In this document: piece by piece, positions 18,224-53,219 of the stretch
Layout: each line of letters begins with the position of its first letter
Position numbering within the stretch: position 1 is the first letter of the stretch
Assembly (NCBI GenBank): GCA_020343615.1
Contig: CP070803.1
Span: 143,686-207,685, forward strand
DNA from: Candidatus Woesearchaeota archaeon
GTDB lineage: Archaea > Nanobdellota > Nanobdellia > UBA10117 > GCA-020343615
Length of the DNA: 64,000 nucleotides
Reading direction: 5' to 3'
Made by a program: the position numbers and the translations under genes
Notes under the pieces: generated by a model
The model's database searches: none
Told to the model about the DNA's origin: nothing
Seen by the model: only the letters and a program-made list of their open reading frames with translations

Positions 18224-18322
18224 TGCAGGAGGCAGGGTTTGAACCTGCGAAGGCACTAAGCCACGTGGTTTCTCATAAGAAGAACTTGAGCCACGCCCTT
18301 TTGACCACTCAGGCACTCCTGC
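18224..18322 (-). tRNA. tRNA-Leu(CAA) with a 15-nt intron at the canonical 37/38 position
   Basis: Hand-folded as acceptor GCAGGAG/CTCCTGC, anticodon stem CGTGG/CCACG, loop CTCAAG-[TTCTTCTTATGAGAA]-A, a long variable arm (GGC-TTAGT-GCC) and T-arm GCAGG-TTCAAAC-CCTGC. Confidence 0.7.
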
Positions 18323-21721: not shown

Positions 21722-21828
21722 TGCCCCCGACGGGATTCGAACCCGTGTCCATGGCTCGAAAGGCCATAATGACTTGCCCTCCTTTCAATTTCTCGAAAAA
21801 GAGTTTGGCCGGACTACACCACAGGGGC
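21722..21828 (-). tRNA. tRNA-Glu(TTC) with an intron of about 33 nt at a non-canonical position in the D-loop/D-stem
   Basis: Hand-folded as acceptor GCCCCTG/CGGGGGC, anticodon arm ATGGC-CTTTCGA-GCCAT, variable loop GGAC and T-arm ACGGG-TTCGAAT-CCCGT. The 5' part TGGTGTAGTCCGGCCAA...CATT matches an archaeal tRNA-Glu D-arm only after removing an internal insert. Confidence 0.6.
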
Positions 21829-21880: not shown

Positions 21881-22023
21881 TGGGCGAGCGGAGATTTGAA
21901 CTCCGGACTTCCAGCATTTACTGTCTCTGGTTAGCTTAGACCTTCTCTAGCGAGAACAGGTCATATAAGACTTACGCGGAGTTTAAGCTCCTCAGCGCTC
22001 TAACCAGACTAAGCTACCCGCCC
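21881..22023 (-). tRNA. Intron-containing tRNA, isotype unresolved (143 nt; probably two or more introns)
   Basis: The ends are clear: acceptor GGGCGGG/CTCGCCC, D-arm TA-GCTT-AGTCTGGTTA-GAGC, T-arm CGGAG-TTCAAAT-CTCCG. The interior has long-range complementarity (GTCTGGTTAG with CTAACCAGAGAC), and I could not place the anticodon loop by hand. Confidence 0.5.
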
Positions 22024-47683: not shown

Positions 47684-47758
47684 GGGCCCGTAGCTCAGTC
47701 TGGCCAGAGCACTTGGCTCTTAACCAAGGAGTCGCGGGTTCGAATCCCGTCGGGCCCA
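47684..47758 (+). tRNA. tRNA-Lys(CTT)
   Basis: Hand-folded as acceptor GGGCCCG/CGGGCCC, anticodon arm CTTGG-CTCTTAA-CCAAG and T-arm GCGGG-TTCGAAT-CCCGT. Confidence 0.9.
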
Positions 47759-47762
47759 CTCC

Positions 47763-47834
47763 GGGCCGGTAGATCAGCGGTAGATCGCCACCTTGGCATG
47801 GTGGAGGCCCTGGGTTCGATTCCCAGCCGGTCCA
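47763..47834 (+). tRNA. tRNA-Ala(GGC)
   Basis: Hand-folded as acceptor GGGCCGG/CCGGTCC, with the G3:U70 alanine identity pair. Anticodon arm CCACC-TTGGCAT-GGTGG and T-arm CTGGG-TTCGATT-CCCAG. Confidence 0.9.
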
Positions 47835-47850
47835 CTTATAATTCTAGAAA

Positions 47851-49281: not shown

Positions 49282-50277
49282 ATGAAAGCCCTAGCTTTAT
49301 TTTCAGGAGGTTTGGACTCTATTCTAGCGATTAAACTATTACAAGAACAAGGTGTTGGGGTAATAGCTTATCACTTTACTTCTCCAGTTTTAACTGAGGA
49401 TCTTAAAGACATTAAAAAAACAGCTAAGGAATTAGGAGTTAAGCTAATTATTGAAGAAGCTGACTCAGATTACTTCAGAATGTTAAGAAAGCCTAAACAT
49501 GGCTACGGAAGTGCTATTAACCCTTGTATTGACTGTAGGATATTTGTATTTAAAAAAGCAAAGAAGGTAGCTAAAAAAGAAGGTGCTAAATTCATTGCTA
49601 CAGGAGAAGTTCTTGGAGAAAGGCCCATGACACAGGTTAAACGGTCTTTAGAGCTGATTGAAGAGGAAGCTGGCTTAAAAAACAAGCTATTAAGGCCCTT
49701 ATCTGCGAAATTGCTTCTAGAAACTGAAGCTGAGAGTAAGAAGTGGGTCAATAGAAAAGGATTTTTAGATATAGAAGGTAGAAATAGAAAAAAGCAGTTA
49801 GAATTAGCCAAAAAATACAAATTAAAGGACTATCCTACGCCTGCTGGTGGCTGTTTACTAACTGATAAAGATTTTGCACCTCGAGTAGCTGATTTATTTA
49901 AGAATAATAAAAGAATTACTAATAAGGATTTTCTTTTGATAAAATTCGGGAGACATTTTAGGTATAAAAACAGTAAAATCATTGTAGGTCGTGATGAAAA
50001 AGATAATGAACAATTAATAAATCTTAAGAATAAAACAGACTTTATCCTTGAAGTCTCTAATTATGGGAGCCCAATAACTATTTTACAGGGAAAAGATATA
50101 GAATTCGCAGCTAAATTAACCGCAAGATATTCTGATGCTAAAGGAAAGAAAATAGAGGTTAAATACGGAAAACAGAAACCTATTAAAAGCTTATTTGTCT
50201 CTCCTGCAACACAAGAACAGGTAGATAAATACATGATACGCCGAGATAGCTCAGTTGGTAGAGCGCCAGTCTCATAA
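49282..50277 (+). CDS. PP-loop ATPase of the MnmA/ThiI tRNA-thiolation family
   Basis: SGGLDS PP-loop. NPCIDCRIFVFKK resembles the MnmA/ThiI catalytic-Cys motif NPxxxCNxxIKF. A second Cys lies in PAGGCLLTD. The 3' end overlaps the tRNA-Met gene by 38 nt. Confidence 0.55.
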   Translation: MKALALFSGGLDSILAIKLLQEQGVGVIAYHFTSPVLTEDLKDIKKTAKELGVKLIIEEADSDYFRMLRKPKHGYGSAINPCIDCRIFVFKKAKKVAKKEGAKFIATGEVLGERPMTQVKRSLELIEEEAGLKNKLLRPLSAKLLLETEAESKKWVNRKGFLDIEGRNRKKQLELAKKYKLKDYPTPAGGCLLTDKDFAPRVADLFKNNKRITNKDFLLIKFGRHFRYKNSKIIVGRDEKDNEQLINLKNKTDFILEVSNYGSPITILQGKDIEFAAKLTARYSDAKGKKIEVKYGKQKPIKSLFVSPATQEQVDKYMIRRDSSVGRAPVS

Positions 50278-50312
50278 GCTGGATGTCGCGGGTTCAAATC
50301 CCGCTCTCGGCA
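50240..50312 (+). tRNA. tRNA-Met(CAT), elongator type
   Basis: Hand-folded as acceptor GCCGAGA/TCTCGGC (G1:C72, so not an initiator), anticodon arm CCAGT-CTCATAA-GCTGG and T-arm GCGGG-TTCAAAT-CCCGC. Confidence 0.85.
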
Positions 50313-50690: not shown

Positions 50691-51878
50691 ATGCCTGAAA
50701 GTATTCTAAAGAAAGCTGGTGGATTTGTAAAAGACTCTGTTCTACTTTTAAGACCTTTACGTAAAAAAGAAAAATGGGATATTGGGAGATTGGATACATA
50801 TCTTTCTCCGGAAGAATATAGGAAAGTAAAGGGGGCATTAAAACAAGGTAAGGTTAAAATTGAACTATTAAAGTTGGGTTTTTCATTTTTAATCTCTGGA
50901 AAAGATGTTTTGCCTCGCTTAGTTTCTGAAGTTGAGTTTTTTCAAAAAATAAATAACAAGATAGAAAAAAAGTACTATGATAAATTATTTGAAGAATTTT
51001 CTCCACGAGCTTATGATGTTCTATTTCATTATTTGGCTTCAGATGTCATGTATCTCGCTGATCTAAAAAGAGCAGCAATACTTCAGTTATTCACAGAATT
51101 TCCTCTTCATGTTCTCATTATTGGTGAGTCAGATAGTGGAAAGTCTAAAATTCTGAATTCTGTCCGAACATTAGCGCCAAAATCAACTTATGGTATTGGA
51201 TCTTCAATATCTAGCAGCGGTCTAACACTATCTGTACAGGGGAAGAATGTGAAACCTGGTATTCTTCCTAGAGCTGATCAGGGTGTTTGCTGTATTTCTG
51301 AATTAAATCTAATTAAGAAGAATGAACTTTCGCAGCTTGTTTCTGTCATGGATAAAGGTTACATTAAATATGATAAAGGCGGTGCGAGTATTAAAAAAGA
51401 TGCTAGAACTAAAATACTAGCTACAGCTGAGACTAAAAAAGGTGATTTTAAATCATATTCTCTTTCACAGATAAAGAAACAGATACCGTTTAACTCTTCG
51501 TTTTTATCTAAATTTCATTTAATATTCATTACTAAAAAGCCTAGTAAAAATGAATTTAGAATTATTGCTGATACAATCATAGATGAGTCTGTTAAAAAGG
51601 ATATAAGTAAAGATGAAATTGAATTTATTAAACGATATATTGACTATAGTTCTGGAATTAGAGTAAAACTTCCTAAGAAATTAGCTAAACAAGTAGATGA
51701 ATTCGTTGTTGGTTTAAAAGATATGGAAAAAAAGTTACCTTATAACATTTCCTCTAAAACAGTTGAAGGGATTGTTTCCTTAATCAAGGCATCTGCAAGG
51801 TCTGAATTTAGAGGAGAAGTAGAAAATAAGGACTTAGAAAGAGTTTTTTCAATAGTCCGGAGCGCACTTCAAATATAA
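50691..51878 (+). CDS. Short, degenerate MCM-like AAA+ protein (395 aa) lacking the MCM N-terminal domain
   Basis: Walker A IIGESDSGKSKIL. The segment GVCCISELNLIKKNELSQLVSVMDKGYIKYDKGGASIKKDARTKILATAE aligns with the MCM Walker B/sensor/arginine-finger block (GVCCIDEFDKM...AIHEAMEQQTISIAKAGI...SARCSVLAAAN), but the Walker B Asp is replaced by Ser. Confidence 0.5.
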   Translation: MPESILKKAGGFVKDSVLLLRPLRKKEKWDIGRLDTYLSPEEYRKVKGALKQGKVKIELLKLGFSFLISGKDVLPRLVSEVEFFQKINNKIEKKYYDKLFEEFSPRAYDVLFHYLASDVMYLADLKRAAILQLFTEFPLHVLIIGESDSGKSKILNSVRTLAPKSTYGIGSSISSSGLTLSVQGKNVKPGILPRADQGVCCISELNLIKKNELSQLVSVMDKGYIKYDKGGASIKKDARTKILATAETKKGDFKSYSLSQIKKQIPFNSSFLSKFHLIFITKKPSKNEFRIIADTIIDESVKKDISKDEIEFIKRYIDYSSGIRVKLPKKLAKQVDEFVVGLKDMEKKLPYNISSKTVEGIVSLIKASARSEFRGEVENKDLERVFSIVRSALQI

Positions 51879-51913
51879 AAGTTTATAAATGCAAAAAATA
51901 CATTAATTTTTAA

Positions 51914-52659
51914 GCCTCGGTAGCTCAGTCGGCAAGAGCGACGGAGGGTGAAAGTTGATATGATACAACTTAATGAACGCGTTGCAGAAGAAACTGGTAT
52001 TCACATTGGTGATGGTAGCATGAGCATATATAACGGTATACCTTGTTATACTGTTGCATGTAATGCTAACAAAGAAAGAGAATACGTTGAAAAATATATA
52101 GCTCCATTAATAAAAGAAGTATATGGAATAAAACCGAAGTTAAGAATGTGGTCAGAAGGAGCATATGGATTTAGGATTGTTTCTAGAGAAGTGATAGAAT
52201 TTAAAAATAAAGAATTGGGTCTTCCATTAGGACCTAAAAAAGAAATAGAAATACCTTTTAAAATAATAAAAAATATGAACTTAGCTAAAAAATGTATACG
52301 TGGACTCTTTGATACAGATGGTTGTGTCTATATTGAAGAAAAGAAAACAGGTCCTTACCCTAGAATAGAATTACACCTAAGTTCAAAAAAAGTAGTAAAG
52401 CAGGTTAGTGAAATATTAAAGGATCTAGGATTAACTTGTTCAATTTGGGAACATAAATATCCTAATAAAAAGAATTGGTCAAACACGTATACAGTGTGTA
52501 CTCGAGGAACAAAAAATTTAAACATTTGGATGAAACAAATAGGATTCAAAAATCCTAAAAACATAAAAAAAGTATTAGCTTTCACCGGTCGAATCTTGTA
52601 TGCCGAAAGGAGTTTGGCCAAGTAAACCGTAGGTCGTGGGTTCGATTCCCACCCGGGGC
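51914..52659 (+). tRNA. tRNA gene (Thr-like D-arm and U73; isotype unresolved) interrupted by an intron of roughly 0.67 kb that encodes a LAGLIDADG endonuclease
   Basis: 5' exon GCCTCGG-TA-GCTC-AGTCGGCAA-GAGC-G-ACGGA.. and 3' exon ..GTAA-ACCGT-AGGTC-GTGGG-TTCGATT-CCCAC-CCGGGGC-T pair into a 7-bp acceptor stem (GCCTCGG/CCGGGGC) with a canonical T-arm. An oligo-T tract follows. I could not define the exact splice junctions or anticodon by hand. Confidence 0.55.
51948..52625 (+). CDS. LAGLIDADG homing endonuclease (double-motif, monomeric type) encoded inside the tRNA intron
   Basis: Two LAGLIDADG motifs: GIHIGDGSMSI and IRGLFDTDGCVYI. The ORF runs from the 5' splice region into the 3' exon, as is typical of intron-encoded HEs. 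Confidence 0.75.
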   Translation: MKVDMIQLNERVAEETGIHIGDGSMSIYNGIPCYTVACNANKEREYVEKYIAPLIKEVYGIKPKLRMWSEGAYGFRIVSREVIEFKNKELGLPLGPKKEIEIPFKIIKNMNLAKKCIRGLFDTDGCVYIEEKKTGPYPRIELHLSSKKVVKQVSEILKDLGLTCSIWEHKYPNKKNWSNTYTVCTRGTKNLNIWMKQIGFKNPKNIKKVLAFTGRILYAERSLAK

Positions 52660-52749
52660 TTTTTATAGTATTTTAAAAATAAAGGATATGTTCCTAAATC
52701 TAAAGAAATAGAAAGATTTTTTAAGGCTACTAAAATCTGAAGATGTAGT

Positions 52750-52877
52750 GGGCCGGTGGTCTAGCTGGTTAACTCTTCCAGAACTTTTGTGGGAGAGGCC
52801 AAATGACGCAGCCCTTACATGTTCTTAAAAAGGGCTAAGATAGGCTGAGGTCGGGAGTTCGAATCTCCCCTGGCCCA
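52750..52877 (+). tRNA. tRNA-Val(TAC) with two introns: a 22-nt canonical 37/38 intron and an intron of about 33 nt in the D-loop
   Basis: Hand-folded as acceptor GGGCCGG/CTGGCCC, anticodon stem CAGCC/GGCTG with loop CTTACA-[TGTTCTTAAAAAGGGCTAAGAT]-A, and T-arm GGGAG-TTCGAAT-CTCCC. The D-arm GTCT...TGAC-G closes only if an internal insert of about 33 nt is removed. Confidence 0.65.
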
Positions 52878-52934
52878 CTTGTATACTGCTGTAAAGAAAT
52901 TTTTATTATAATACTATCACTATTTGATAGATAT

Positions 52935-53219
52935 ATGAAAACTGAAACAAAGCTACATATAAATAACGCTGGTCGAGGAGCCTCTTTTTTAGTTGCAACA
53001 TATGGATACTTAAGGGGAACAGGAGAGTATTTTATTCAACTATCTCAAAATATACTTGCTACTGCTTCTTATTTTATTTTAACTGGGAGGTCTAAAATAT
53101 TAGAAAGGAGCTTGGTAACGACTGACACTCTAGAAAAATCAAAATCCTATAAAAAATATGAGCTTCAAATAGAAAAAGAGATTGAGGAATCTATTAAAAA
53201 AGATGAAGTTGCTAAATAA
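52935..53219 (+). CDS. Hypothetical protein (94 aa)
   Basis: ORF only; no motifs. Confidence 0.3.
   Translation: MKTETKLHINNAGRGASFLVATYGYLRGTGEYFIQLSQNILATASYFILTGRSKILERSLVTTDTLEKSKSYKKYELQIEKEIEESIKKDEVAK

Follow-up and report, generated by a model that had tools for sequence, protein, structure and literature searches.

The question raised by this locus is how a tRNA gene whose two halves are held apart by an endonuclease gene could still give rise to a canonical tRNA. The locus lies in a stretch of 64,000 nucleotides (nt) from a Candidatus Woesearchaeota archaeon (the window, by which the whole stretch analysed is meant), and an earlier note had described it as a tRNA gene split by one intron of about 0.67 kilobases (kb) that encodes a LAGLIDADG homing endonuclease. 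It is proposed here that the gene is a tRNA-Thr(UGU) gene of three exons, interrupted by two introns of the archaeal bulge-helix-bulge (BHB) type, and that the endonuclease gene resides in the first of these, between tRNA positions 30 and 31 in the anticodon stem (Table 1). The exons would be cut out by the tRNA splicing endonuclease EndA and joined by the ligase RtcB, and the encoded enzyme would act in homing. A probability of about 0.8 is given to this reading, which was derived from the DNA sequence.

Both halves were found where the earlier note had put them; their acceptor strands pair at 7/7 positions and the D- and T-arms are canonical. The 5' part reads GCCUCGG UA GCUC AGUCGGCAA GAGC G ACGG from 51914 and the 3' part, ending at 52660, reads AGGUC GUGGG UUCGAUU CCCAC CCGGGGC U. 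Their inner ends had to be redrawn: the last base of the supposed 5' terminus ACGGA (A51945) is assigned to the intron as its first base and not to tRNA position 31, and in the supposed 3' beginning GTAA the letters GTA form the end of intron 2, exon 3 starting at A52625. Joined in silico, the three exons give a canonical 74-nt tRNA-Thr(UGU) with the anticodon arm ACGGU-CUUGUAA-ACCGU and the discriminator U73. This product has the class I cloverleaf, with an anticodon stem of 5 base pairs (bp), a 7-nt loop, U33, a purine at position 37 and the T-arm sequence UUCGAUU. When the doubly spliced sequence was given to ARAGORN it was called as tRNA-Thr(tgt), in keeping with the Thr-like identity suspected before, and when intron 1 alone had been removed the program detected intron 2.

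The splice sites were searched with the BHB geometry of a 3-nt bulge, a 4-bp helix and a 3-nt bulge, the cut being made after the second bulge base. The BHB check that the earlier note had recommended turned up two well-formed motifs; in each of them 3-nt bulges lie on opposite strands, separated by a 4-bp helix and bordered by flanking helices (hBHBh'). In BHB 1 the inner 15-bp helix comes after one G.G mismatch and the outer helix counts 3 bp (GAG/CUU). All possible one- and two-intron solutions were enumerated by a solver and scored by their BHB central helices; the present two-intron solution came first, with both central helices paired at 4/4 positions. With the tRNA frame kept fixed, two stretches were randomised, 40 nt following position 26 and 110 nt preceding the variable loop, and none of 1000 sequences shuffled in this way reached the score. 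The minimum free energy (MFE) fold of the 747-nt precursor (z = -4.7) shows the acceptor stem, the T-arm, the BHB 1 central helix and the 15-bp closing helix. The count of oligo-T terminators inside the precursor, 0 runs of T>=5 against 1.19 expected from other open reading frames (ORFs), does not tell avoidance from chance (P = 0.3).

A single intron of ~0.67 kb in the anticodon loop of a tRNA with an unusual loop, as the earlier note had it, is scarcely credible. ARAGORN does return a model of this kind when long introns are allowed, namely a tRNA-Tyr (gta) with a 675-nt intron, but this forced answer has a shifted and mismatched anticodon stem and lacks U33. When x bases from the 5' side were joined to 9-x bases from the 3' side, 0/10 joins gave a canonical loop with U33. 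The two-intron solution, in contrast, scores best and matches intronless orthologues base for base. What stands of the former description is an endonuclease-coding interruption of about 0.65 kb; this is made up of two introns (649 + 24 nt), and their places are 30/31 and the canonical 37/38 instead of an odd position in the anticodon loop.

Table 1. Predicted features of the tRNA-Thr(UGU) locus and further interrupted tRNA genes in the window (^ marks the cut in a bulge)
Feature	Position	Strand	Remarks
tRNA-Thr(UGU) host gene	51914-52660	+	chromosomal, Candidatus Woesearchaeota metagenome-assembled genome (MAG); 747 nt; three exons (31, 7, 36 nt), two BHB introns
TATA-like box TTTATAAA	51882-51889	+	~28 nt 5' of first tRNA base; from sequence
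Exon 1	51914-51944	+	tRNA positions 1-30; acceptor 5' strand, D-arm, first 4 nt of anticodon stem
Intron 1, BHB type	51945-52593	+	649 nt; tRNA positions 30/31, anticodon stem, non-canonical site
BHB 1 central helix	51939-51942 / 52588-52591	+	4 bp; CGAC (tRNA positions 25-28) / GUCG
BHB 1 bulges	51943-51945, 52592-52594	+	GG^A, AA^U
Intron 1 closing (inner) helix	51947-51961 / 52572-52586	+	~15 bp; MFE fold
LAGLIDADG ORF	51960-52625	+	from ATG, 221 amino acids (aa); alternative start GTG 51948 (225 aa); motif 1 51984-52016, motif 2 52296-52322
Exon 2 (micro-exon)	52594-52600	+	7 nt, UCUUGUA; tRNA positions 31-37; holds anticodon UGU
Intron 2	52601-52624	+	24 nt; canonical 37/38 BHB site
BHB 2 central helix	52595-52598 / 52619-52622	+	CUUG / CAAG; bulges UA^U and UA^A
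BHB 2 inner helix	52602-52605 / 52615-52618	+	GCCG / UGGC; outer helix = anticodon stem
Exon 3	52625-52660	+	tRNA positions 38-73; anticodon stem 3' strand, variable loop, T-arm, acceptor 3' strand, U73
T5 run	52660-52664	+	after exon 3
tRNA-Val(UAC), uncalled	52750-52877	+	two BHB introns
tRNA-Val(UAC) intron, D-loop/D-stem	52772-52803	+	32 nt
tRNA-Val(UAC) intron, 37/38	52820-52841	+	22 nt; central helix CUUA/UAAG
Intron-bearing tRNA frame	21722-21828	-	107 nt; Rfam 50.5 bits; missed by ARAGORN
Intron-bearing tRNA frame	21881-22023	-	143 nt; missed by Rfam and ARAGORN
Intron-bearing tRNA frame	18224-18322	-	99 nt; missed by Rfam and ARAGORN

Independent evidence for the junctions comes from relatives in which the site is empty. 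These were found through the MCM-like protein encoded just upstream, the homologues of which on the contigs L167, L168, L169 and L170 are 83, 69, 68 and 54% identical, respectively. On 4/4 of these contigs an intronless tRNA-Thr(UGU) gene of 73-74 nt directly follows the MCM-like gene, and a similar TATA-like box (TTATAAAT, TTTTAAAG or TTTTAAAT) is present at the same place before it. The box of the window is likely, from its sequence and place, to be the promoter of the whole pre-tRNA. Exon 1 is identical at 31/31 positions to the first 31 nt of the L169 gene, which continues after this part with UCCUGUA-AACCGUAGGUC and in which the intronless site reads GCAAGAGCGACGGTCCTGTAAACCGTAGGTCG. This contiguous match implies that the predicted exon 1/2 and exon 2/3 junctions are exactly those of the contiguous gene, and the restored host RNA, spliced in silico, is the same canonical tRNA as that of the intronless syntenic orthologues. 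The other differences between the window and L169 are compensatory T-stem changes only (GUGGG/CCCAC versus GCGAG/CUCGC), which argues that the window exons are still under selection as a tRNA. In these sequences, both introns and the endonuclease gene are present in the window lineage and absent from its syntenic relatives on the four contigs.

Two side observations concern the same relatives. In the tRNA-Thr genes of L168 (3139-3212) and L169 (2614-2687), which are two independent assemblies, position 33 is occupied by C and not by the near-universal U (loop CCUGUAA). The MCM-like protein itself (395 aa, 50691-51878 on the plus strand of the window) consists of the AAA+ and lid domains only and has no N-terminal domain; this length is kept in the relatives, where the gene always lies directly upstream of tRNA-Thr.

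A polymorphism in the opposite direction was also found. L167 carries a 244-aa LAGLIDADG_3 gene between tRNA-Lys(CUU) and tRNA-Ala(GGC) (974-1920), the latter bearing an intron of ~33 nt in the variable-loop region, whereas in the window (47684-47835) tRNA-Lys and tRNA-Ala lie 4 nt apart, are both intronless and have no endonuclease gene between them.

The same arrangement recurs in homologous tRNA genes. The closest homologue of the endonuclease, P0002 (57% identity) at locus L161, is encoded within the intron at 30/31 of a tRNA-Thr(UGU) gene which has the same micro-exon, the 37/38 intron and in addition a third intron; this last one (~32 nt, around 1150-1250 of L161) is situated in the T-loop near 59/60. 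Further intron-borne endonuclease genes were found in tRNA-Thr genes (P0003/L165/L081, and L016 from a Micrarchaeota MAG) and in tRNA-Asn(GUU) genes (L007/L084). The layout with introns at 30/31 and 37/38 is common to 13 genes, which were aligned in fixed-length segments, and 12 homologous tRNA-Thr genes have the 7-nt micro-exon (UCUUGUA, CCUUGUA or ACUUGUA). Across the 13 genes the pairing of the BHB helices amounts to 91%, and that of the intron 1 central helix to 100% (13/13 genes), with compensatory changes (CGAC/GUCG, CGGC/GCCG, CACC/GGUG, CGUC/GGCG) and with one position at which GC, GU, AU, CG and UG pairs are seen. Exons 1, 2 and 3 together build an anticodon stem that is likewise 100% paired, compensatory changes included, and in which the 31:39 pair covaries (AU 8, UA 3, CG 2). 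Sliding the partner by one to three columns as a register control reduced the pairing to 25-51%. The closing helices of L165/L081 (16 bp), L016 (10 bp) and L007 (6 bp) differ in sequence from that of the window.

These comparisons also bear on the idea that the endonuclease cassette has inactivated the tRNA-Thr gene and that the two halves are pseudogene remnants. Standard tRNA finders indeed do not call the gene: neither ARAGORN with its standard settings nor a Rfam scan of the window at gathering thresholds reported a tRNA at 51914-52660. A dead gene is nevertheless very improbable, given two well-formed BHB motifs exactly at the boundaries that a canonical product needs, an exon 1 without any change relative to an intronless orthologue, T-stem changes that compensate each other, a layout kept with covariation in distant lineages, and a position in the syntenic slot of the tRNA-Thr(UGU) genes of the relatives.

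The gene within intron 1 was studied from its predicted product. Both LAGLIDADG motifs noticed earlier are present, AEETGIHIGDG(S) and IRGLFDTDG(C), and the single ORF does read into the 3' exon: it continues across the micro-exon and intron 2 and ends in a TAA (52623-52625) whose letters lie on both sides of the junction of intron 2 and exon 3. From the ATG it is identical to the NCBI protein JSW73_01190 (221 aa), from a Candidatus Woesearchaeota MAG with a contig of 919,475 bp. The profile search that the earlier note had called for gave a match to Pfam PF14528 (LAGLIDADG_3) of 48.3 bits (cutoff 22.5; E 1.2e-12). The catalytic acidic residues are embedded in G17-D18-G19 and T119-D120-G121, which are invariant in 40 homologues. 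An AlphaFold2 model of the protein (predicted local distance difference test 95.4, predicted template modelling score 0.90) together with Foldseek gave the two-domain alpha-beta-beta-alpha-beta-beta-alpha DNA-binding saddle. The best Foldseek matches in the PDB were the Thermococcus VMA (TliVMA) intein endonuclease, I-DmoI and I-Tsp061I with a probability of 1.00, PI-SceI scoring likewise; the bI3 maturase and WhiA were also among the matches. A profile search of PDB sequences matched 7qsu, 1dq3 and 2dch, and the identity to solved enzymes amounts to 18-22%. On this evidence the ORF is an intact double-motif LAGLIDADG endonuclease gene, the activity of its product being predicted from sequence motifs and a model of the fold. 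Conservation among the homologues ends at about residue 205, leaving the tail encoded by the closing helix, the micro-exon and intron 2 free to vary. A phmmer search against all six-frame ORFs of the window revealed no further copy of the endonuclease.

Across the 5' splice site runs a Shine-Dalgarno-like sequence, GGAGGGUGA (51943-51951), 8 nt ahead of the ATG. Being part of the BHB 1 bulge and of the closing helix, which extends into the ATG, it would be partly sequestered in the folded precursor. If intron 1 were circularised, the ORF would, by the codon table, stop four codons past the junction and give 215 aa with the conserved domain intact.

LAGLIDADG-bearing group I introns are known from DPANN rRNA genes (PMC6125680) and from bacterial tRNA genes (PMC13011429). 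That the present intron is a self-splicing one of group I (or II), as in bacterial tRNA genes, is nonetheless so improbable that it can practically be dismissed. No match to a group I, group II or other intron family was found by Rfam in 51850-52950 even at E<=10, and the ORF occupies 634 of the 649 nt of intron 1, which leaves no room for a ribozyme core. Moreover, a position in the anticodon stem combined with a BHB motif is of the archaeal type.

The endonuclease belongs to a family of 529 proteins (E<=1e-3) in DPANN archaea. At least 474 loci were found in species-representative genomes and at least 510 in metagenomes; the members occur in several DPANN phyla with a patchy distribution. 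A tRNA is next to or around the endonuclease gene at 112 of 161 loci. At 81 of the 161 a complete tRNA gene on the same strand starts between -40 and +200 nt from the endonuclease stop codon, at 21 the 3' end of the endonuclease gene meets, or is overlapped by, a convergent tRNA, and at 10 the tRNA frame spans the endonuclease gene. The 49 loci that remained without a tRNA call are mostly on short contigs or hold genes beyond the reach of the frame finder. A Rfam scan of 20 sampled loci confirmed the adjacent tRNAs and, with tRNAs alone and no rRNA at these 20 related loci, spoke against an origin of the family from rRNA introns. Searches for viral carriers in IMG/VR gave distant relatives at best (<=34% identity over partial matches).

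The clades of the endonuclease follow the identity of the tRNA: Thr-UGU, Asn-GUU, Ile-GAU (an upstream and a convergent clade), Arg-GCG, His-GUG and Leu-UAA. In a neighbour-joining tree the Thr and Asn endonucleases form one clade with a bootstrap value of 100. At the loci L001-L006, L082, L085 and L164 a free-standing endonuclease gene is located directly upstream of tRNA-Thr(UGU), and nearly all of these tRNA-Thr genes have short, ORF-less introns at 30/31 and 37/38. Free-standing genes beside a tRNA gene with an ORF-less intron were also found at Asn loci (L086, L089, L072). An endonuclease gene beside an ORF-less-intron gene is the layout of collaborative homing, which is thus displayed by the Thr and Asn relatives and not by the window. 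The intron-borne copies (window and L161, L081 and L165, L016) branch beside free-standing ones in the same tree, which, as the decisive nodes have bootstrap values below 50, favours neither direction of a switch between inside and outside. Introns at 30/31 were present in 26 of 80 solvable enzyme-adjacent tRNAs versus 1 of 20 other tRNAs of the same loci (one-sided Fisher p 0.009, a value not corrected for phylogeny). It is tentatively suggested, at somewhat less than even odds, that DPANN archaea carry a large undescribed family of LAGLIDADG endonucleases targeting tRNA genes, with a clade for each tRNA species (those named above and others) and members that are free-standing or reside in a 30/31 BHB intron.

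In two clades unusual layouts were observed. In the Arg(GCG) clade (L061/L141, L062, L132, L051/L133, L114, L125, L128; for example L061 1917-3200) a 5' tRNA fragment of ~24 nt, comprising the acceptor strand and the D-arm, is followed by a TATA-like box, an endonuclease ORF of ~375 aa and a complete tRNA-Arg(GCG). This nested array ends with a lone T-arm and an acceptor 3' strand, which is complementary at 7/7 positions to the fragment at the upstream end. The outer fragments show compensatory differences between loci and have no room for an anticodon arm; they may be either a disrupted old copy or a functional structure. In one Ile(GAU) clade (L010-L013, L017, L024, L025 and others) the 3' end of a convergent tRNA overlaps the last codons of the endonuclease gene, as at L010 (3118-3238, minus strand). 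As a result of this overlap, several of the proteins end in ...GGPAEI, which is the translated complement of the tRNA CCA, acceptor strand and T-stem.

How the locus might function can be outlined from established knowledge of archaeal BHB splicing and LAGLIDADG homing, from which the steps of splicing, translation and homing are inferred. One precursor would be transcribed from the TATA-like box, EndA would cut its four bulges and RtcB would join the three exons. The RNA translated into the endonuclease would be either the precursor or the intron after its excision, possibly as a circle, with initiation presumably directed by GGAGGGUGA across the 5' splice site. The enzyme would then cut intronless tRNA-Thr DNA in the region of the anticodon arm, near GAGCGACGG^UCYUGUAAACCGU, and repair off the intron-bearing copy would move intron 1 jointly with the micro-exon and intron 2. 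The resident gene would be immune, its two introns splitting a recognition site of likely ~20 bp into three pieces.

It is also conceivable, if improbable, that the endonuclease gene is no longer mobile and is either a vertically inherited passenger of a tolerated intron or a domesticated, maturase-like binder of RNA or DNA. WhiA and the bI3 maturase, which are domesticated forms of the LAGLIDADG fold, are matched by the predicted fold; the closest relative, at 57% identity, gives no sign of very recent transfer; many members of the family adjoin intronless tRNA genes; and the ribosome-binding site is buried in the closing helix. A loss of mobility is, however, difficult to reconcile with the invariance of both catalytic acidic residues across the 40 homologues, with the absence of the element from all four syntenic relatives, and with the varying placement of the family genes (inside, upstream or convergent) in several DPANN phyla. 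A function as maturase is moreover not called for, BHB splicing requiring none.

Four points weigh against a mobile endonuclease gene in a doubly interrupted tRNA-Thr gene as proposed here. The same micro-exon bases are needed for the 3-bp outer helix of BHB 1 and for the BHB 2 central helix, so that the two motifs cannot both be complete at one time; it is implied that the precursor folds in a certain order or in alternative ways and that EndA has a broad specificity. The splice sites in the alignment of the 13 genes came from a solver that rewards pairing, and the covariation counts consequently lean towards structure, which makes the empty-site comparison the stronger evidence. One third of the solvable enzyme-adjacent tRNA genes are intronless, and at these the simple idea that the intron protects the site cannot hold. 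Finally, the neighbouring tRNA-Val(UAC) gene gained two introns with no endonuclease gene nearby; its joined exons equal, apart from one base in the D-loop, the intronless tRNA-Val that follows tRNA-Thr in L167. This suggests that introns of the lineage do not need an enzyme gene next to them in order to spread or persist.

The genes around tRNA-Thr are those of an ordinary archaeal chromosome and encode, besides the MCM-like ATPase, a ThiI-like protein, PyrB/PyrI, aEF-1alpha and aEF-2. The longest ORF of the ThiI/NFACT-R-like gene (49282-50277, plus strand) overlaps the start of tRNA-Met(CAU) (50240-50312, plus strand) by 38 nt, an overlap that is smaller (10 nt) in L167. About 5 of the about 12 tRNA genes in the window are interrupted. 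ARAGORN and Rfam together miss 4 of the about 12, and of the five that bear introns one was caught. This indicates that standard annotation under-counts tRNAs here.

With regard to known systems, archaeal BHB introns with endonuclease genes have been reported for rRNA genes (PMC4496867, PMC6125680), and the tRNA introns reported to hold such genes are of bacterial group I type (PMC13011429, PMC3984707). In a literature search of incomplete coverage, neither a BHB intron with an endonuclease gene in a tRNA gene of archaea nor a tRNA-linked free-standing archaeal LAGLIDADG family was found described. The earlier remark that such enzymes are rare or undescribed in archaeal tRNA genes agrees with this searchable part of the literature. 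As far as could be found, the endonuclease-bearing BHB intron, which is classical for archaeal rRNA genes, has a new host in the archaeal tRNA gene. Like the rRNA introns of I-DmoI (Desulfurococcus 23S), I-Tsp061I (Thermoproteus 16S), I-PorI and I-ApeI, the present one would be protein-spliced, resides in a gene for a stable RNA and encodes a monomeric double-motif LAGLIDADG enzyme. I-DmoI and I-Tsp061I, both archaeal rRNA-intron enzymes, are among the best structural matches of the window enzyme, 2dch being a sequence match. Unlike the rRNA introns, it is hosted by a tRNA gene and sits in the anticodon stem beside a second intron with a 7-nt exon between the two, its ORF crosses an exon and the second intron, and the relatives of its enzyme are mostly free-standing beside tRNA genes.

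Archaeal tRNA genes with several introns and with introns at non-canonical positions have reportedly been described (Marck & Grosjean 2003; Sugahara et al. 2008). To our knowledge, the introns of such genes in Thermoproteales and ARMAN/DPANN measure tens of nt, up to little over 100, and hold no protein gene. Intron 1 of the window, with its 649 nt and an endonuclease gene, differs from them in this respect, and resembles them in being a BHB intron outside 37/38, in a gene with several introns that would need an EndA of broad specificity. In Nanoarchaeum equitans, the tRNA halves of split genes are reportedly encoded as separate genes and joined in trans (Randau et al. 2005). The window shares with this case the joining of DPANN tRNA parts at a BHB-like structure, but its exons all lie in cis on one strand, within 747 nt and behind one promoter. 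The multi-intron genes of Thermoproteales and ARMAN/DPANN with introns at non-canonical positions are those cited in PMC4496867 and PMC5829648.

The bacterial examples comprise a cyanobacterial tRNA-Arg(CCU) intron with a LAGLIDADG enzyme and a tRNA-fMet intron with a PD-(D/E)XK enzyme (PMC13011429, PMC3984707). They have in common with the window an endonuclease gene within an intron of the tRNA anticodon arm; they differ in that they are self-splicing group I introns of the anticodon loop, whereas in the window no ribozyme was detected and splicing by proteins would be required. Free-standing endonuclease genes in a tRNA gene cluster are known from phage T4 (SegB). Collaborative homing was described for F-CphI, a free-standing enzyme of cyanophage S-PM2 whose gene adjoins the intron-containing psbA (Zeng, Bonocora & Shub 2009, as related in PMC6083498). 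In like manner the relatives are free-standing beside an ORF-less 30/31 intron, and the window gene lies inside that intron. Free-standing and intron-borne are the two states that the collaborative-homing model predicts, and by analogy the family may parallel the route proposed from collaborative homing to endonuclease-bearing introns. The differences are that the intron is of the BHB type and not group I, that the host is a cell and not a phage, and that cleavage and protection are here predicted from the genes.

In general, the introns of archaeal tRNA genes are regarded as short sequences without coding function; their movement between genes and positions is an open question. A BHB tRNA intron that carries its own mobility enzyme, together with empty sites in close relatives and sister enzymes just outside homologous tRNA genes with an ORF-less intron at this position, makes a gain of tRNA introns that is driven by an endonuclease at the level of DNA directly testable. 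If the suggested reading of the family is true, it captures for protein-spliced introns the transition from collaborative homing to mobile intron that was proposed for group I, and gene conversion driven by an endonuclease would be one engine of the spread of non-canonical tRNA introns in archaea. The tRNAs that seem to be missing in DPANN genomes may be artefacts of annotation. The family would, furthermore, enlarge the meganuclease repertoire by compact LAGLIDADG scaffolds whose targets are tRNA genes.

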